From: an uncultured Eubacterium sp.
GTDB lineage: Bacteria; Bacillota; Clostridia; Lachnospirales; Lachnospiraceae
Assembly (NCBI GenBank): GCA_910584645.1
Contig: CAJUAU010000004.1
Coordinates: 7,333-71,332 of the forward strand
Length of the DNA stretch: 64,000 nucleotides
Reading direction: 5' to 3'
Of the stretch, positions 18,578 to 36,985 are shown one piece after another (the stretch's first letter is position 1; each line of letters begins with the position of its first letter). The notes beneath the pieces were generated by a model. It made no database searches. It had not been told where the DNA came from and worked only from the letters and a program-made list of their open reading frames with translations. The translations under genes and the position numbers were made by a program.

Positions 18578-18612
18578 TATCCATACCCCTCTTATTGTGT
18601 TTTACATATAAA

Positions 18613-18641
18613 TATATATCATATTTTTAAAAGAACATCAA
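18613..18641 (-). promoter_or_regulatory. Candidate sigma-A promoter of the LytTR two-component operon
   Basis: On the minus strand: TTGATG, 17 nt, TATATA, with a TGn extension. It lies 15 nt downstream of the stop of the 1,093-aa gene and ~35 nt upstream of the regulator's ATG. Confidence 0.35.
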
Positions 18642-18655
18642 GACATGATACAAAA

Positions 18656-21600
18656 TTAACAGTTGGAATCCTTTGGTACAATAAAATAATTAATCTCCCT
18701 GGAATCATCCCCAAGCATTTCAATGTTTTTAACAGTCCTGCTGTCTTTTATATTGGTAGAATCACAGGTGGTGCTTCCACAGTGCTGAACCTCAACTTTG
18801 TAAAATGCTTCCAGGCCTTTAAAACTTTCCAGCAGCCCCGCCACTTCATCAGGGATCATCTGAATGATTTCTCTCACACCAGGGTTACTGATCACCGGAC
18901 ACTGCTCACGCTCTTCCTCCGGCTCTGCCACGTAATTAAGACAAAAAGGACTTTGTCTGGCTATCTTCATAGAATTCAAAAACATGTATATATCATTACG
19001 GATACGATTAATATCTTTTTCCGTCAAAAAAGGTAAAAAATAACGATAAAATACAGTTTGTAAATATGAAAAAACCGAATATAAAACCAAATTACAATAT
19101 CTCTCTAACCTATTATCTTTTTTCTTCGAATCCACTTCTAATTTTATTTCCGTTTCTTTCAAAATATTTAACATCCGCCTTTCTATTTTTTCCATCATTA
19201 ACCTGTATATTTTATTCCGAACTTTTTCTTGAAGTTCATAGAGAAGAGGAGCCATATTCTCATAATCCGTTTCTTTTTTCGTTTGGAAATCACAAAATAT
19301 CTGATCTTCATCAACAAAAAGAGAAGAAAGCCCATATGTTGCTGGACCTGAACTGCCATTAACGGATACCCGGAAATGCTGGTTATTTTCTCCCTCCCCC
19401 CCATCTTCTCTCCATAAAATAAGTTGAGCAATTTCTATATGCGCAGAGCAACCTTTTAAAGGACATTCTTCATTTATTATATTTGCATCTGGCAATTTAA
19501 ATATAATTTCATCATTAGTCATATTTTTTCTCCCCTTGCACTCTTCACAAGAAGCCCATGTAGCATACGAAAAAATGCCCTCTTCCTCTTCGTTCTCTCC
19601 CATACGCATAAAGCCTTTTATCTGAAGCCCAGAATTATCTTTACATATTACACGATCATATATCTTATCTTTATACTCATGTATTATACAAATATTTTTA
19701 TCAGCTTCTCCTTTTTTCTTACACCTTTCATATATACAATCTGCCAGTTTCTTCTCCAACGGATTCGCATGTTGTCCGACACATATATAGTTAACATCCT
19801 CTGCAACCTCGTCCTTTTCCTCATCAGGTAAACTTATTAATACATATTCACCAATTACAGAACGTTTTGATAAATAATGCGACAACTCTGAAACGGCATC
19901 CAGATCCCATTTTGCGACACGCCGTCTCGGATTATAATCATTTACATCTTTATCATTATACTGTGATAAATAAATTCTTAGACGATTATAACGAAGCATG
20001 ATATTCCAAAACCGCCTTCGATAATAAGATTCCAATGCTACTCTGTTTTTTATTTGAGTTTCTTTATCATTTGATTGTTTTTTTATATCCGCTCCTACTT
20101 TCTCCCAGGATTTATCATCGTCTTCCTCATGCAGCTCTAAGTATTCCCACTTTTTAAATCCATGCCAGGTCGCATCAGAAGGAATGATCTTAGAATGCTT
20201 TTCGATACCAAACTGTGCTAATGCTAATTGATGATAAAATCCTTCTGTGTCATGAGAATAGTAATATGCTGTCCACAAACCGGCAACATCAAAAATGTTT
20301 CTATCAATATTTTTAATGTCTCCCTCTATTATTTGCCTTTCTTTTTCTGAAAGCTCATTTTTAACAGTTATAGCATAAATCTCTGCCCCATGTGCCGCAC
20401 CAAGCCAAAATAATGATTGGGGACTATTATTGGTAATATCTACTACTATTTCATTTGTATAGCAAAGGGTTCTAAGCATCACATGATATAGGCAAAAAGC
20501 CTTTAATGCATTGCACTGCGTGTTGTCAACCTTTAGAATATTTGGTGTCACTTGATTCTTTATTCGCTCAACATATACAGGATTGTCAGGATATACAATC
20601 ATCCCTCTATTTCCAATATATTCTTTCACAAAACGTTTTATTTCTTTTTGATATGTTTCCGACGCTCCATTAGGCTGTGTTTTATCTGTAACTTTTTTTA
20701 GTATACTATCATCCTCTGCCTGTACTTTCTCTTTTGCAGCCAGATAAGTCGCCTGATTCACTCCGATATGTATAATCTCCCCTACATTATAAAGAAGATA
20801 TCTTTCATTTTTCGCATCTTTATCGCCGTCCGGAATCACATGCCCTTGTACCAATACACCCACACGTTCTCCACAAAAGCACTGTTCCCTCTGCATCCTT
20901 TCTGTGATACTATGATAAAAATTCACGATGCACAAACCAGCTTGGTCTTCATTCAAGAACCCTTCCATTGTATAAACCACTAATGTATTATCCTGTTTCG
21001 TAGCATGATTATACTGCTTCTTTAGTTTATTATAAATGACTTTACCTATTTGTTCTTGTTTATTTCCCTCTATTTGTATCATTTCATCATAAGGAAACTG
21101 TCTATATTGTCCATCTGAAAATCCATATAATCTATTAACTGCCTTATCATATTTAAGATAATAAGTATTAGAAGACTTATCATCTTTCTCATTTTGTTTA
21201 AAACGGATTCCATAATATTCAAACAGATTTTTCCGCCATGGGTAACATCCTATGTGGTGTTGGATATCATTCAAATTAGCTATATCCTTCTCGTTCTTAA
21301 GTTCCATCTTTTTTATCTCATCTGGAAACTCTAATTTATAAAAACTCTCGCTAAAACAAATTGGTAAAATTAGCTTCTCCAAAGCAACTGCCATTCCAAA
21401 CTCATAAAATACATTTGGATTCTGAAGAGATACATCTACTATTACAAGATCTGCTATCTGGATCTGTTGGCAAATCCGGCTGCAGATGACATAATTAGAG
21501 GCTGGACTTGAGTCCGACCGGACTACCTTGATCTTGTCAACCTTCTTCATTCCAGCCATACTGCTATTTTTCTTTACACTACAGTACAATCTGTTATTTT

Positions 21601-21937
21601 TCATGTCCACGTATAAATATTTTGCCAGTGACTTAACAAATATCTCAATTCGCCATTTGTATACAACGTCAGACATATCAGAAAAATTCATGATTACAAA
21701 GGCAGAAATTGTAATTTTCTCCTTTCCTTCTTTATCTTTATTTTCATATAATTTTTTTCTTTCCCGCTGAATATTTGTTTTTTGTGAACAATATTCACCA
21801 CTCATAAAACATCGTCGGGTATGTGTACTATTCTCCGTAGAAATATAGCATGTCTGGCATACTTTTAAACCAGAACCTATATTCTCGCAATTTCCAGCAC
21901 AATTACGATTGTCATCACTCTTTTTACTTTCATCCAT
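18656..21937 (-). CDS. Large (1,093 aa) multidomain protein of unknown function: N-terminal Cys4 zinc ribbon, NDT/TIR-like Rossmannoid module, second degenerate module of the same type, further Cys-rich region; candidate signal-generating partner of the adjacent Macro effector
   Basis: Uninterrupted 3.3-kb ORF in very AT-rich DNA. Start placed at the ATG at 21937 (AAAGGGGAGA RBS) rather than the TTG at 21976. Motifs: CAGNC-x9-CQTC; FVIMNFSD...ADLVIVDVSLQNPNVFYEFGMAVALEKLILPI; later EIVVDITNNSPQSLFWLGAAHGAEIYAITV; CEECKG...ECPLKGC. No match to a protein family I can name beyond the NDT/TIR-like fold. Confidence 0.65.
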   Translation of the reverse strand: MDESKKSDDNRNCAGNCENIGSGLKVCQTCYISTENSTHTRRCFMSGEYCSQKTNIQRERKKLYENKDKEGKEKITISAFVIMNFSDMSDVVYKWRIEIFVKSLAKYLYVDMKNNRLYCSVKKNSSMAGMKKVDKIKVVRSDSSPASNYVICSRICQQIQIADLVIVDVSLQNPNVFYEFGMAVALEKLILPICFSESFYKLEFPDEIKKMELKNEKDIANLNDIQHHIGCYPWRKNLFEYYGIRFKQNEKDDKSSNTYYLKYDKAVNRLYGFSDGQYRQFPYDEMIQIEGNKQEQIGKVIYNKLKKQYNHATKQDNTLVVYTMEGFLNEDQAGLCIVNFYHSITERMQREQCFCGERVGVLVQGHVIPDGDKDAKNERYLLYNVGEIIHIGVNQATYLAAKEKVQAEDDSILKKVTDKTQPNGASETYQKEIKRFVKEYIGNRGMIVYPDNPVYVERIKNQVTPNILKVDNTQCNALKAFCLYHVMLRTLCYTNEIVVDITNNSPQSLFWLGAAHGAEIYAITVKNELSEKERQIIEGDIKNIDRNIFDVAGLWTAYYYSHDTEGFYHQLALAQFGIEKHSKIIPSDATWHGFKKWEYLELHEEDDDKSWEKVGADIKKQSNDKETQIKNRVALESYYRRRFWNIMLRYNRLRIYLSQYNDKDVNDYNPRRRVAKWDLDAVSELSHYLSKRSVIGEYVLISLPDEEKDEVAEDVNYICVGQHANPLEKKLADCIYERCKKKGEADKNICIIHEYKDKIYDRVICKDNSGLQIKGFMRMGENEEEEGIFSYATWASCEECKGRKNMTNDEIIFKLPDANIINEECPLKGCSAHIEIAQLILWREDGGEGENNQHFRVSVNGSSGPATYGLSSLFVDEDQIFCDFQTKKETDYENMAPLLYELQEKVRNKIYRLMMEKIERRMLNILKETEIKLEVDSKKKDNRLERYCNLVLYSVFSYLQTVFYRYFLPFLTEKDINRIRNDIYMFLNSMKIARQSPFCLNYVAEPEEEREQCPVISNPGVREIIQMIPDEVAGLLESFKGLEAFYKVEVQHCGSTTCDSTNIKDSRTVKNIEMLGDDSREINYFIVPKDSNC

Positions 21938-21972
21938 TTCAAATGTCTCCCCTTTGCTTACTCTATGTAAAT

Positions 21973-22860
21973 TCAATCATATATCGATACCTGGCTCTTT
22001 TGTTCAGAATAAATTACGATATTCACAGTCCCCCGGATTTCATCCGCATGTAATTGGAAAAAAGACTTTAATATTCTTACAGAATCTTTGGGGCTTAAGT
22101 CTGCCCCCGACAATCCAGTTCCCATCAGAGGCAGATATAGGTCATATCCCTGTCCCTTTTTCCGTTGAAAATCTAAAATTGATTCCGCACACTGGATCAC
22201 TTTATCTTTTGAGCTCTGTGCATTATTATTTTCATCGAACTCGGACAGGGCCACCAGAAGAAACGTAACTTTATTGCTGCCAGCAACCGGTACGACAGTT
22301 CCGATCTCATAATTATTCAAATTCCCCCGTTCTTTCTTCTCACGCAGCAATATCTCTTTGGGGATTCTACTTTCAAGATATTCACTGATTTTCCTATCCA
22401 GTTCACTTCTGTCCATCCTCTCCTCACAAAATTTCAGCAGCCATTGCCCGTGAATTGCCTCGGGAGAAACTAATAGCTTTTTATTTTCTGCAATATTCTC
22501 ATCTACAATCGTATCAAAACATGTATTCACTGGAATAACCACCGTTCTTTTTTCTCTGTTTTTCTTTGGAAACCCTAATCTCATAATATCTCCGTAACAG
22601 ATACCTATCTTATTGATCCCCTTCTCATAAACAGTAAATTCCTTTTTCAAAACACAGATCCACAACAACGCAGCCGATATGCTAAACAGAATAATGCAGA
22701 TAAAAACAATGGATTTGCCAAAAAAACCTTGAATGTTAAGATCTTCCCATGTCACAAAGGAAAGCAAAATCGTAAGACCAGAAAATAACGTGGCTGCTAC
22801 TTTGCACGCTGCCTTTAGTACCCGTCTGCTATTATATCCTGCCATCTCAATGACTTCCAT
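21973..22860 (-). CDS. 2TM + Macro-domain protein, resembling the type II Thoeris effector ThsA
   Basis: ATG at 22860 with GAGGGGGAG RBS. Two hydrophobic helices (AATLFSGLTILLSFVTW, SIVFICIILFSISAALLWICVL). C-terminal ~200 aa carry Macro-like motifs RTVVIPVNTCFDT, SPEAIHGQWL and DLYLPLMGTGLSGADL. Confidence 0.65.
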   Translation of the reverse strand: MEVIEMAGYNSRRVLKAACKVAATLFSGLTILLSFVTWEDLNIQGFFGKSIVFICIILFSISAALLWICVLKKEFTVYEKGINKIGICYGDIMRLGFPKKNREKRTVVIPVNTCFDTIVDENIAENKKLLVSPEAIHGQWLLKFCEERMDRSELDRKISEYLESRIPKEILLREKKERGNLNNYEIGTVVPVAGSNKVTFLLVALSEFDENNNAQSSKDKVIQCAESILDFQRKKGQGYDLYLPLMGTGLSGADLSPKDSVRILKSFFQLHADEIRGTVNIVIYSEQKSQVSIYD

Positions 22861-22891
22861 GAAAAACTCCCCCTCTCATATTCTTTTTTTC

Positions 22892-22920
22892 ATTATATAA
22901 TACATGGTTTCTTCCCACAA
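22892..22920 (-). promoter_or_regulatory. Candidate promoter of the two-gene island
   Basis: On the minus strand: TTGTGG, 17 nt, TATAAT, ~30 nt upstream of the ATG at 22860 and downstream of the rpe terminator. Confidence 0.3.
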
Positions 22921-23018
22921 TCCGCCATCATTCTTCTTTTTCCACTGTTTTTATTACATATTTCCTCATTTACAGATACGAAAAATAATGTTTTTTCGCC
23001 GACGGTATTCCTTCCATG

Positions 23019-23771: not shown

Positions 23772-24674
23772 TTAGTTGTATTTACGCCTTTCCCACTCCT
23801 TCAGCTCCTCGTACATCTGCACGTAGTTTTCATAGCGCACCGGACTGATCTGGTCCTGGTCCAGTGCTTCCTTGACCTTGCAGTCTGGCTCATGGGTATG
23901 GGTACATCCCATAAAACGGCAGCCGCCCTCATAAGGGGCAAACTCCGTAAAGTACTTCCTAAGTTCTTCCTTCTCCATTTCGGGAACCCGTAAAGAACTG
24001 AATCCTGGTGTGTCAAACAGATAAGTCCCCTCTCCCACACAAAAAAGTTCGGAATGCCTCGTGGTATGCTTTCCCCTTCCGATCTTTTCGCTGACCTCTC
24101 CGGTCTGGGAGGCGGCCTCTGGGAAAATCTGGTTGAGTATGCTGGATTTCCCAACCCCGGAAGGTCCCGCGAGAACGCTTGTCCTGCCCTCCAGCAGCTG
24201 GTGGATCTGATCCATGCCGATATTCTCCCTGCTGCTGACAAAAAGCACTTTGCTGGCGCACTTTTCATATGCTGCCAGCAGCTGCACTTCCTCTTCTTTC
24301 GTAACAATATCTAACTTATTAAAACAGATGGCGGTGTCGATGCCCTGCATCTCCATCATCACCAGAAAACGGTCCAGAAGATTCAGATTAGGCTGCGGCT
24401 CTGCCATGGCAAATATGATCAGTGCCTGATCGATATTTGCCACCTCCGGCCGGATAAGCCTGTTTTTTCTTGGCAGGATCTTTTGGATATTTCCCAGCCC
24501 CTTCTCCTCCGAAGTGGCCTGGATCACCACATTATCACCGACAAGGGGCTTTATCTTATCTTTTCGGAAAATCCCCTTTGCCCTGCACTCATAAAGCTTC
24601 TCTCCGGTCTCTGTCAAACAGTTCACATAGTAGAAACCGGCGATGCCTTTTATAATCTTTCCCTCTAATTCCAT
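23772..24674 (-). CDS. rsgA: Ribosome small-subunit-dependent GTPase A
   Basis: Circularly permuted GTPase: NKLD, then GPSGVGKSSILN, DTPGF, and a C-terminal zinc knuckle CRFMGCTHTHEPDC. Confidence 0.9.
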   Translation of the reverse strand: MELEGKIIKGIAGFYYVNCLTETGEKLYECRAKGIFRKDKIKPLVGDNVVIQATSEEKGLGNIQKILPRKNRLIRPEVANIDQALIIFAMAEPQPNLNLLDRFLVMMEMQGIDTAICFNKLDIVTKEEEVQLLAAYEKCASKVLFVSSRENIGMDQIHQLLEGRTSVLAGPSGVGKSSILNQIFPEAASQTGEVSEKIGRGKHTTRHSELFCVGEGTYLFDTPGFSSLRVPEMEKEELRKYFTEFAPYEGGCRFMGCTHTHEPDCKVKEALDQDQISPVRYENYVQMYEELKEWERRKYN

Positions 24675-26719
24675 CAGCCGGCAACCCTCTTCAAAGTAAC
24701 ATTATAGGTCGCCACCAGGGAACCATCACGATACACACTCAAGGTAGCGGCACCAGCATTTTCACCTTCCACCTCTAACTGGAATGGGAAATTGTGATAG
24801 CTCATTGTAGCTGTCTTTACAACTTTATCCTGGCCGTCCTGGGTAAGCACAAACTTAAATTCAGCCGACGGATCTGTCTCATACTCGAAAGGATTGTTGA
24901 TGGTGACAGACCCCTTATATACATAGGTCTGCTCTTCCCCAAGACTGAGAGTTATATCCACAGCGGTTCCTTCTTCCACCTGTTTGCCTGCAGCAACACT
25001 CTGTACACACACACGGTTTTTCTGGGTCGAGGAATAATTCTTCGTCTCATTTCCATAAACCAGCCCGGCTGCCTTAAGGGCCGCCTTTGCCTCACTCCTG
25101 GTTTTGCCGATGAGATTCGGAACTTTGGTAAATTTGGTCTCCTCACCCTTGCTGGGGTAAATCGTAATGGTAGCGCCTTTTTCAGCTTTTTTCCCAGCTG
25201 CCGGATCTGTATATGCCACTTTTCCGACCTCTTCGCTGCTATATACATCTGCCCCCTGCTTCACAGAAAATCCCTGTTCCTGGAGCGCCGTAATGGCATC
25301 GGTAATGGTTTTTCCACTGGTTTCCGGAACGCTGATCTTTTCCTCACCGGTGCTGACTACGAGGGTCACGGTACTTCCGGCAGCCACCTTGGATCCTGCT
25401 CCTGGCTCGGTCCGGATCACCTTATCTTTATCCACATCATCCGAGGCTTCTTCTTCAATCTCATATTTTATATCTTCATTGCCCAGCTCCACAATGACGC
25501 TGTCCTTCAGCTGACCTGCAAAATCAGGAAGTACATAATCCCCGGTTTCTTCTGCACCAGGTGTAGGTGAAGCCGTTACTTTTGCTTTATTATCTTCATT
25601 TTTTTCATCGCCGCCGGAACTGCCCCATAGTCCGATAAACCGTCCCAGCATATAGATCACCACCAGGCCGATGATGATCGCCACAGCAATACTTCCAAAG
25701 ACAAGGGCCTTTTCCAGTTTCGGATCCACATCAGATTTGCTCTCTTCTTCTTCCTCCGGCTCCTCTTCTGGCATCCCATAATCTTCCTTCGGGGTCATAC
25801 CTGTTCTGGAAGCATTTTTCAAAGTATTCACGTCATCCTTTGACATAAAAATGGTTCCCCCATTCTCATAAAGACTGCCGATGACACCGTAATCCCCGCT
25901 GGGATCCTGCAAAAACATCTTGAGGTCTGCAATAAGATCTGCAGCACTGATATAGCGGAGTTCCGTCTTTTTCTGCATACATTTATTTACAATATTACTA
26001 AGACCTCTTGGAATTGTCGCATCCATTGCTGCCAGAGGTGTAGCATCATCCTGGATATGAGAGAGGGCGATCGCCACCGCGCTCTCTCCGGTAAATGGAA
26101 GGGTCCCGCTGATCATCTCATACATAGTGACGCCAAGAGAATAGATATCACTTTTTTCATCACTGTATCCCCCTCTTGCCTGCTCTGGAGAAATGTAATG
26201 AACCGATCCCATAGCGTTAGCAGTGATCGTATTGGAACTTGCCGCCTTGGCAATTCCGAAATCACTGAGCTTCGCAGTGCCATCGCGGGCGATCAGTATA
26301 TTCTGGGGCTTGATATCTCTATGAATAATATTATGCCTGTGGGCAGCATCCAGACCATTGGCGATCTGCAGGGATATCCCAACTGCCTCCTTTACGGTAA
26401 GTTTCCCTTTTTCTTCAATATATTTTTTTAATGTTATACCATCAATCAGCTCCATGACAATATAATACATGCCATTTTCTTCTCCTACATCATAGATGCT
26501 GACAATATTCGGATGTGATATGCAGGCCACTGCCTGAGCTTCTCCGCGGAATTTCGTAACAAATTTGGTATCTTCACTATATTCCTGTTTTAGGATCTTT
26601 ATGGCAACAAACCGGTTGAGACGATGGCATTTGGCGCGAAAGACATCTGCCATTCCGCCAGAGCCAACTTTCTCCACAATCTCGTATCTGTCGCCGATTA
26701 TGGTTCCTACACTTACCAA
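24674..26719 (-). CDS. prkC: Ser/Thr protein kinase with PASTA repeats (PrkC/PknB type)
   Basis: GSGGMADVF, HRDIKPQNIL, DFG, one TM helix, then repeated PASTA-like units (VPNLIGKTRSEAKAALKAAGL, etc.). Confidence 0.9.
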   Translation of the reverse strand: MVSVGTIIGDRYEIVEKVGSGGMADVFRAKCHRLNRFVAIKILKQEYSEDTKFVTKFRGEAQAVACISHPNIVSIYDVGEENGMYYIVMELIDGITLKKYIEEKGKLTVKEAVGISLQIANGLDAAHRHNIIHRDIKPQNILIARDGTAKLSDFGIAKAASSNTITANAMGSVHYISPEQARGGYSDEKSDIYSLGVTMYEMISGTLPFTGESAVAIALSHIQDDATPLAAMDATIPRGLSNIVNKCMQKKTELRYISAADLIADLKMFLQDPSGDYGVIGSLYENGGTIFMSKDDVNTLKNASRTGMTPKEDYGMPEEEPEEEEESKSDVDPKLEKALVFGSIAVAIIIGLVVIYMLGRFIGLWGSSGGDEKNEDNKAKVTASPTPGAEETGDYVLPDFAGQLKDSVIVELGNEDIKYEIEEEASDDVDKDKVIRTEPGAGSKVAAGSTVTLVVSTGEEKISVPETSGKTITDAITALQEQGFSVKQGADVYSSEEVGKVAYTDPAAGKKAEKGATITIYPSKGEETKFTKVPNLIGKTRSEAKAALKAAGLVYGNETKNYSSTQKNRVCVQSVAAGKQVEEGTAVDITLSLGEEQTYVYKGSVTINNPFEYETDPSAEFKFVLTQDGQDKVVKTATMSYHNFPFQLEVEGENAGAATLSVYRDGSLVATYNVTLKRVAG

Positions 26720-36759: not shown

Positions 36760-36985
36760 GAAAAAGAAGCGACATTCCCGATCAATGGAAATGCCGCAAA
36801 AATTCAATCACATTCTGTAGCACTCCATCTTAAAAGATGACAGTCATATACTTCTTCAGCATATGCCCAGGCAGACAGTCTCAGGTATCTGTCTCCTTCG
36901 GCAGACTTTCCTTTCATTTACCATCATCTATGTAACCTGACACATCCGGAAAACTACTGATAAAGTCCGCGCCTCTACTCTTTCT
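36760..36985 (-). promoter_or_regulatory. Lysine (L-box) riboswitch with terminator, in the dapA leader
   Basis: The minus-strand RNA reads AGAGGCGCGGACUUUAUCAGUAG...GGAAAGUCUGCCGAAGGAG...CUGCCUGGGCAUAUG...AUGACUGUCAUC. These match the conserved L-box segments as I recall them from B. subtilis lysC (AGAGGUGCGAACUUCAAGAGUA, GUCGCCGAAG, GGCUGUCA). The 3' end GCGGCAUUUCC...GGGAAUGUCGC plus UUCUUUUU is a terminator 25 nt before the dapA RBS. Confidence 0.75.

Follow-up and report, generated by a model that had tools for sequence, protein, structure and literature searches.

The stretch of DNA considered here, hereafter the window, comprises 64,000 nucleotides (nt) from an uncultured Eubacterium sp. 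of the Lachnospiraceae (assembly GCA_910584645.1, contig CAJUAU010000004.1, positions 7,333 to 71,332). A two-gene islet (18600..22950) of low GC content (0.34-0.37 vs ~0.46-0.48 in its flanks) lies between the response-regulator gene of a LytTR/GHKL two-component pair and rpe, with which a housekeeping prpC-prkC-rsgA-rpe operon ends. Both genes of the islet, like all features located within them below, are on the minus strand. The first, thsA (21973..22860), encodes a protein of 295 amino acids with two N-terminal transmembrane (TM) helices and a Macro domain. The second, the giant gene, is an open reading frame (ORF) for 1,093 amino acids (18656..21937). It starts with the ATG at 21937, 36 nt from thsA, and has a ribosome-binding site (AAAGGGGAG, 8 nt 5' of the ATG) separate from that of its neighbour. 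We propose that the giant protein occupies the slot of ThsB, the partner of ThsA in Thoeris immunity, as a sensor and signal synthase. An initial annotation of the giant gene, made from the sequence alone, had called its product an orphan with a Cys4 zinc ribbon and a module resembling nucleoside 2'-deoxyribosyltransferases (NDT) and TIR domains. Its ORF, its quoted stretches and its NDT-like motif stand, but the orphan status and the ribbon do not, and it had overlooked thsA directly upstream. The stretches ISAFVIMNFSD, KIKVVRSD and ADLVIVDVSLQNPNVFYEFGMAVALEKLILPI are found at residues 77-193, EIVVDITNNSPQSLFWLGAAHGAEIYAITV at residues 496-525 and CEECKG...ECPLKGC at residues 797-830.

Far from being an orphan, the giant protein has 354 homologues at 90% clustering in a collection of 5.8 billion proteins, and the 120 of them that were listed share 43-84% identity over nearly their full length. 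When 1.84 billion representatives were searched exhaustively by profile, the family widened to 1,011 representatives at E<=1e-3, 159 of them at E<=1e-30. With near-identical copies on 62 contigs and hundreds of homologues, the family is common among human-gut Lachnospiraceae, whereas searches of phage and plasmid collections gave no match to it. The few homologues that carry a taxon name (Roseburia, Blautia, Lachnospiraceae) are all annotated as 'hypothetical proteins', and no source searched gives the giant protein a name of its own. NCBIfam and PADLOC scans of the whole protein returned zero matches, and its sole Pfam match is PF05014, a nucleoside-salvage enzyme family (E 0.017, 15.7 bits vs a gathering cut-off of 28.8). 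Judged from the residues that are invariant in an alignment of 118 homologues, to which all per-residue conservation figures below refer, the motif features of the protein lie far beyond chance. Its AlphaFold (AF2) model reaches a mean pLDDT (the predicted score in the local distance difference test) of 82 and a predicted template modelling (pTM) score of 0.88.

The identity of the neighbouring gene product is clear from several independent comparisons. It matches PF20016 ThsA_Macro at 2.5e-37, the PADLOC model ThsA1 at 1.1e-98, and the structures 9UUZ and 8R66 in the Protein Data Bank (PDB), both entitled 'Thoeris protein ThsA', at 4-6e-10 (8R66 6e-10). The Macro domain, taken from the Pfam match, spans residues 85-284 (22009..22608). 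The two predicted TM helices, AATLFSGLTILLSFV and IVFICIILFSISAALLWICVL, occupy residues ~18-70 (22651..22809), with Kyte-Doolittle peaks of 1.81 and 2.86 at residues ~18 and ~51. By these matches the window thsA product has the architecture of a type II Thoeris effector. Examples of type II Thoeris are the Bacillus amyloliquefaciens system, whose signal is a conjugate of histidine and ADP-ribose (ADPR), His-ADPR, and EcThsA/EcThsB1/EcThsB2 of Escherichia coli. A ThsB enzyme of the class exclusive to TM-Macro effectors converts nicotinamide adenine dinucleotide (NAD+) to His-ADPR (10.1101/2024.01.03.573942). Once this conjugate has bound the Macro domain of ThsA, the membrane is damaged by the TM helices (10.1101/2024.01.03.573942; PMC11204291).

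The association of the giant gene with thsA recurs across genomes. A ThsA gene adjoins the giant gene in 15 of 17 informative loci, lying upstream, downstream or divergent amid unrelated flanks. In a tblastn survey with one genome per species, 11 genome loci had ThsA adjacent (upstream in 4, downstream in 6, divergent in 1), at identities of 24-95%; beyond these and the window, the pair was found at L083, L086 and L148. P0228 and P0225, two divergent relatives of full length, adjoin PF20016 genes in other contexts. In an all-against-all clustering of neighbouring ORFs, ThsA alone was conserved beside the giant gene; the flanking genes differ between loci except on a near-identical Roseburia contig. 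The low GC content of the islet and these unrelated flanks give it the look of a horizontally acquired segment, and the pair is probably a self-contained, horizontally mobile unit.

The single genome locus without ThsA, L009, carries a giant gene that is split at the catalytic motif. There, in a Clostridiales metagenome-assembled genome (MAG; JAJBVE010000036.1, 7824-11417), two ORFs read ...DLIIVDVSS and MFYELGMAVALGK, with no ThsA within 8 kb. Either the copy is decaying after loss of its partner or the assembly is in error. It could still be argued that the adjacency reflects nothing more than the clustering of unrelated systems in defence islands, or that the giant protein serves nucleoside salvage as a housekeeping enzyme and has a large structural extension, as its only Pfam match, below the cut-off, is to a salvage-enzyme family. 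The sole conserved neighbour amid otherwise unrelated flanks, its variable position, the low-GC islet, the patchy distribution and the broken state of the only unpaired genome copy all speak against such an account, which we regard as very remote.

What stands beside related ThsA genes when the giant gene is missing was examined in 80 metagenomic loci whose ThsA belongs to the clade of the window protein (31-47% identity; profile built from a 7-sequence ThsA alignment). A member of the giant family was the neighbour in one of them. The adjacent same-strand gene encodes a ~185-aa PF08937 ThsB_TIR protein at 47 loci, a 207-aa PF08937 protein at 5, a 264-aa TIR_2 protein at 18, a 316-aa TIR_2 protein at 5, a TIR-TPR protein at 1, a TIR+NDT fusion at 1 and a 389-aa protein at 6. 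Since the same ThsA clade elsewhere adjoins canonical ThsB/TIR genes, the giant gene can be placed in the ThsB slot.

Two of these neighbours carry NDT-like domains. That of the 389-aa protein aligns with the clade of the giant's N-terminal module at an hhalign probability of 97% (E 7.5e-11). Like the giant, this protein thus combines an NDT-like catalytic domain of the same clade with a place beside a TM-Macro ThsA; unlike the giant, it is one third of the size, and it is itself uncharacterised. It is encoded at L123 (4500-5663) and five other loci, carries the motif CDVFIADIT...PNPNVAFELGYA and extends for ~220 further residues at its C-terminus. The fusion is a 344-aa ThsA neighbour (L092, 1715-2749), in which a TIR_2 domain (4e-11) is followed by an NDT-like domain (PF05014, 4.5e-5), so that both branches are united in one ThsB-slot protein.

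The N-terminal module of the giant protein itself, residues 43-200 (21338..21811), is supported by PDB profile search, hhalign and Foldseek. It is laid out as a CF-SG--C cap, a first strand reading AFVIMNF, the stretch KIKVVRSD, a helix with C152 and C156, and the segments ADLVIVDVS, NPNVFYEFG and ILPI. F80, D163, D168, N173, N175, E179, G181 and K188 are invariant. Among them E179 (codon at 21401..21403; 118/118) is the predicted catalytic glutamate, aligned to the Glu of DNPH1/Rcl in GYELG, and its invariance answers a check among homologues that the initial annotation had proposed. In isolation the module scores 17.9 bits against PF05014, still under the gathering threshold of 28.8. A domain profile was assessed at clade level, built from a 28-sequence alignment of giants, divergent relatives and small single-module proteins. 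Against PDB sequences it found DNPH1/Rcl at 4.6e-8, NDT at 1.3e-4, CMP N-glycosidase at 0.039 and PycTIR at E 0.84; ThsB was not among its matches there. Its hhalign comparison with human DNPH1, using a DNPH1 sequence that agrees with the PDB alignments obtained, gave a probability of 96% (E 2e-9) and placed E179 on the catalytic Glu.

Structure comparison leads to the same enzymes. In a Foldseek search with the full AF2 model the best matches were DNPH1, Rcl and NDT, with probabilities up to 0.98 and TM-scores of 0.53-0.56 on the target, and the top match in a viral library was a phage CMP/hydroxymethyl-CMP (hmCMP) hydrolase (probability 0.97). The NDT/TIR-like Rossmannoid fold read from the motifs by the initial annotation is thus backed by profile and structure searches alike, which place the N-terminal region with DNPH1/NDT and in no unrelated fold. 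Pfam TIR models (PF08937, PF13676) do not match the giant protein. Taken together, the profile alignments and the model identify the module as an NDT-branch member of the TIR/NDT superfamily and not as a recognisable ThsB TIR domain. With DNPH1/Rcl and the nucleoside 2'-deoxyribosyltransferases (PF05014), its best profile and structure matches, it shares a colinear order of helix, AD-hhh-D/E, loop, YE-G-A-ALgK and strand, with E179 on the catalytic nucleophile. It differs from them in scoring below the Pfam gathering threshold, in being embedded in a giant multidomain protein, in carrying two Cys pairs, one N-terminal and one in a helix, that those enzymes lack, and in standing in a context of immunity instead of salvage.

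DNPH1 is a 5-hydroxymethyl-dUMP N-hydrolase, and with DNPH1, CMP N-glycosidase and phage CMP/hmCMP hydrolase as top matches, the module could be a deoxynucleotide N-glycosidase of the DNPH1/MilB type. It would then act on modified or unmodified phage deoxynucleotides, for instance of the hydroxymethyl-dUMP/dCMP type, while the Macro partner answered a different cue. Macro domains, however, bind ADP-ribose derivatives, the type II ThsB enzymes that have an NDT-like active site use NAD+ (PMC11204291), and the pairing with ThsA would be left unexplained. We consider such a substrate distinctly improbable. The ThsB subfamilies that occur exclusively with TM-Macro ThsA have an NDT/DNPH1-like active site, and an NDT-branch module beside a TM-Macro ThsA fits this published feature (PMC11204291).

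The cysteines of the N-terminal region fall into two sets of quite different conservation. A Cys4 zinc ribbon had been proposed at C13, C17, C27 and C30, but these positions hold cysteine in 52%, 19%, 59% and 96% of homologues, respectively, and several homologues begin after the segment, e.g. with an MTGEYCS start. The ribbon was rejected as a conserved feature and is better described as an optional Cys-rich N-terminal extension (21848..21901), modelled as a small beta-ribbon at pLDDT 58-77. The conserved cysteines of the module are instead the C43-x6-C50 pair (CFMSGEYC, verified in the sequence; 21788..21811), within the CF-SG--C cap, and the C152-x3-C156 pair (21470..21484), located in the helix ahead of the ADLVIVD strand and present in 118/118. 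Among 234 proteins of the wider clade, 172 have both pairs, none has the N-terminal pair alone, 45 have neither and 17 have the helix pair only; in at least some of the last group (e.g. P0025 and P0106) the called start falls after C43. This co-occurrence, a count confounded by the relatedness of the proteins, fits a single four-Cys site that may bind a metal.

The module is not confined to giant proteins. Small proteins from many phyla contain it as well, with the pattern FVLMPF ... RVDE ... AD-IIADMSGQNPNVFYEVGYAHA-K ... IPFD. Of the 28 clade members, 23 match PF05014, 6 match PF10137 (CAP12/Pycsar TIR) below the cut-off and 4 match TIR_2. Small relatives of the module match the CBASS 'Effector TIR' model (2.8e-9), PycTIR and PF10137, over a range of 1e-4 to 3e-9 and below threshold; the giant protein itself has no such match. 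The module shares the NV--E-G motif around the Glu with the CAP12/Pycsar TIR-like NADases (PF10137; PycTIR). One ~283-aa family with an NDT-like module (L018, L021, L022, L023, L038 and many others, from Proteobacteria and other phyla) has a conserved beta-rich C-terminal domain and ends in ...CDEFPF; the 2.8e-9 match to 'Effector TIR' belongs to it. A 432-aa protein from a Myxococcales MAG (SECP01000010.1; L053, 7875-9173) joins a module of the giant's clade to a C-terminal region with weak colinear likeness to ThsA-Macro motifs (IGYRSGDL / IMPLFGTG; pairwise BLASTP E 0.001). A Pfam scan of this protein found no match. Producer and receiver may thus be joined here in a Rosetta-stone fusion.

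The CBASS, PycTIR and PF10137 matches of the small relatives can be taken in two ways. The contact of clade members with the NADase families CAP12/PycTIR and with TIR_2 adds to the evidence for the catalytic module of the proposed signal synthase. The same matches would also suit a giant protein that is itself the killing effector, namely an NADase or nucleotide N-glycosidase switched on by infection and depleting NAD+ or (deoxy)nucleoside monophosphates ((d)NMPs) in the manner of PycTIR/Cap12 or NDT-type toxins. ThsA would in that case be a second, parallel effector or an amplifier and not a receiver of the signal, and it is true that some family members lack a ThsA neighbour. CAP12/PycTIR proteins, however, are effectors activated by cyclic nucleotides, while the context of the giant speaks for a producer of the signal. 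The type of ThsA found here is ligand-gated and needs such a producer (10.1101/2024.01.03.573942; PMC11204291), yet no other candidate producer is conserved in the giant loci, and ThsA of the same clade pairs with ThsB elsewhere. Because the partner gene is ThsA, a role as signal synthase is likelier than one as effector, and we judge the giant unlikely to be the killing component. The initial annotation had suggested a combined phage sensor and NADase or nucleotide-signal synthase; the conserved TM-Macro ThsA strongly reinforces the idea of a phage sensor with an NAD-derived signal synthase, but not that of a stand-alone NADase.

Beyond the N-terminal module, the giant protein was divided into further segments. 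Segment S1, residues 262-437 (20627..21154), is alpha/beta, has no fold match and occurs only in the long members of the family (~940-1150 aa). Segment comparison found it in P0216, P0228, P0217 and P0208 and found it absent from relatives of ~700 aa. It is followed by a probable second, degenerate NDT-like module at residues 438-581 (20195..20626), which is common to giants and ~700-aa relatives and in which W511 stands in place of the catalytic Glu. The hhalign domain profile A4 aligns with residues ~438-563 over 112 colinear columns (E 4.8e-4, probability 32%). Four motif blocks correspond between the second module and the clade: RGMIVYP with FVIMPF; a helix and EIVVDIT with AD-IIADxS; QSLFWLGAAHG with NVFYELGxAHA, where Trp511 takes the Glu position; and RNIFDVAGLW with IPFD...I-Y. 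Residues D500, W511, G513, H516, R546, D550 and W555 of this module are invariant. The broader clade profile was needed to detect the internal repeat; hhalign of the giant's own N-terminal module with the rest of the protein covered 19-23 columns and fell short of significance (E 0.015-0.03). A model of residues 262-1093 alone (pLDDT 79, pTM 0.87) gave weak Foldseek matches to DNPH1/PDT at probabilities of 0.2-0.3, none below E 0.1. A Glu-less second copy of the NDT-like fold, as the initial annotation had claimed, is probable from the colinear columns and from these weak DNPH1 matches obtained without the first module.

Segment S3, residues 618-890 (19268..20086), is an alpha/beta domain with a Cys/His insert and a GSSGPAT loop. 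It belongs to the conserved core of the family, which in the ~700-aa relatives consists of the N-terminal module, the second module and this domain; segment comparison detected it in P0252 (probability 97.7%) and P0264 (90%). Its insert holds a probable metal site (19439..19549) formed by C797, C800, C825 and H833, which are conserved at 94%, 92%, 95% and 98%. The C-terminal cysteine cluster of the initial annotation therefore survives in part, with C797, C800 and C825, but its C830 is found in just 11% of homologues. In the GSSGPAT loop, residues 861-867 (19337..19357), G861, G864 and T867 are invariant and S863 and P865 occur in 117/118; it is possibly a phosphate-binding loop. A SIS-domain fold was considered for S3 and rejected as not credible (Foldseek probability <=0.15). 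Segment S4, residues 891-1093 (18659..19267), comprises by secondary structure a helical bundle and a three-stranded sheet; it is specific to long members (940-1150 aa) and absent from the ~700-aa relatives. A 353-aa protein at L016 had been a candidate carrier of the giant's C-terminal module and was rejected (probability <=0.4%).

For the regions outside the two NDT-like modules, Pfam, NCBIfam and PADLOC returned no match. In Foldseek searches of the PDB, neither the full model nor the 262-1093 model gave a match below E 0.1 to the ~830 residues that follow the N-terminal module, and a search of the viral library with the full model gave none to them either. By these profile and model searches, ~650 residues of the giant protein match no known fold, and the earlier statement that this part has no recognisable family holds as far as tested.

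From the gene pairing, the effector identity, the fold and catalytic constellation of the N-terminal module and the canonical ThsB partners of the same ThsA clade, we consider it likely that the giant gene and thsA together make up a defence module like type II Thoeris, with an oversized protein of the NDT superfamily as sensor and signal synthase. In such a module the ~900-residue scaffold, that is the Glu-less second copy, the alpha/beta domain with its metal site and GSSGPAT loop, and the helical bundle, would sense a phage-derived cue and free the N-terminal module. The latter, through E179, would break the nicotinamide-ribose bond of NAD+ and, through base exchange or conjugation, load the ADP-ribose onto an acceptor, in the way of the type II ThsB enzymes that make His-ADPR. 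The ADPR-derived product would dock on the Macro domain of ThsA, which would then oligomerise through its two TM helices, damage the membrane and abort the infection. NAD+ as the substrate, the nature of the product, sensing by the scaffold and a phenotype in defence are predictions.

Whether the signal would be His-ADPR can be considered from the ligand pocket. Partner ThsA proteins were aligned to 8R66, and positions follow the numbering of the published B. amyloliquefaciens protein, in which N133 contacts the ribose and R240 the histidine carboxylate of His-ADPR (10.1101/2024.01.03.573942). The window ThsA keeps the equivalents of Q135, S194 and Y277. Among 13 partner ThsA proteins, the Q135 position is Gln in 6 (otherwise Lys/Arg), the S194 position is Ser or Thr in 11 and the Y277 position is Tyr in 6. 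The signal bound by the partner ThsA is probably an ADPR derivative. The N133 position is His in 11 of the 13 giant-associated proteins, the window included (motif HG[QK]W; window, L001-L015, L083), and this His may mark a different ligand. A product other than His-ADPR would fit both this change and the loss of the R240 contact in the window ThsA. On this footing one may tentatively picture a distinct Thoeris type, in which an NDT-family enzyme, in place of a TIR-family one, makes the signal. Its active module, lodged inside a ~1,100-residue sensor of novel fold, would be restrained by forming a pseudo-dimer with the Glu-less copy of the same chain, and would make an ADPR conjugate other than His-ADPR; we regard this fuller picture as possible, though doubtful.

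Several observations weigh against a Thoeris-like module with the giant as signal synthase. The R240 position, Arg in 7/13 partners, is Gly in the window ThsA, and together with His at N133 this suggests that the ligand may differ from His-ADPR. PADLOC ThsB models do not match the giant protein, and the hhalign comparison of the domain profile with a canonical PF08937 partner gave a probability of 0.2%, that is no detectable similarity; as judged by these profiles, homology of the N-terminal module to ThsB is at superfamily level only. The active-site Tyr on the first strand of NDT/DNPH1, which is hydrogen-bonded to the Glu, determines specificity for 2'-deoxy substrates. The first strand of the giant module reads AFVIMNF, with the invariant F80 and without a Tyr. 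The profile alignments stop before this strand, and F80 may be the counterpart of that Tyr. The nearest solved enzymes, DNPH1 and NDT, use 2'-deoxy substrates, and NAD+ would be a departure from them; sensing by the scaffold is likewise conjectural.

The neighbourhoods of some relatives also tell against it. P0216 is followed not by ThsA but by an FRG-domain protein (PF08867; PDC-S15 match at 7e-46), which may be an alternative effector, and P0217 and the 742-aa P0264 have no ThsA in their available flanking DNA. The FRG-domain gene lies at 3987-4784 of L081/L082, and PDC-S15 is a PADLOC candidate defence family. A gene of DUF4231 (L087, 423-962), a SLATT-type 2TM effector family, is situated 2.7 kb upstream of P0217 on the same strand.

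Compared with known type II Thoeris, the window pair has the same two-gene operon, the same effector with two TM helices and a ThsA-type Macro domain of one clade, and a partner with a Rossmannoid N-glycosidase domain and an invariant catalytic Glu. It differs in the size of that partner (1,093 aa vs ~170-320 aa for ThsB), in a catalytic domain invisible to TIR/ThsB models, in the second Glu-less copy and the residues of no known fold, and in a ThsA without the Arg contact to the histidine carboxylate of His-ADPR. Sensors with a TIR domain define Thoeris, and it is by TIR Pfam models that present-day detection tools and screens search. The PADLOC models tested recognise the ThsA half only, so that a giant in the ThsB slot goes unseen. 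In the TIR-system screen of Yirmiya et al., six TIR Pfam families served as seeds and PF05014 was not among them. The literature text searched contains no description of an NDT-type or giant ThsB; the supplementary tables of Yirmiya et al. and DefenseFinder lay outside that search.

If the giant protein is a signal synthase, immune nucleotide signalling would extend beyond TIR to the superfamily's NDT branch. It would then also offer a large, confidently modelled scaffold with no known fold for the study of phage recognition in Thoeris, and a natural tandem of active enzyme and pseudo-enzyme for the study of autoinhibition. 'Orphan' ThsA genes are a place to seek further non-TIR partners.

Elsewhere in the window, a PASTA Ser/Thr kinase of the prkC type (24674-26719) matches the PADLOC family PD-T4-6 at 2.6e-155. 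This gene is inside the housekeeping prpC-prkC-rsgA-rpe operon, and its PD-T4-6 identity was set aside as a generic kinase match; an automated defence annotation at this position could be a false positive. A lysine riboswitch (RF00168, 118.5 bits) lies at 36810-36985 on the minus strand, and the GC skew, about -0.2 elsewhere in the window, is ~zero at 38-42 kb.

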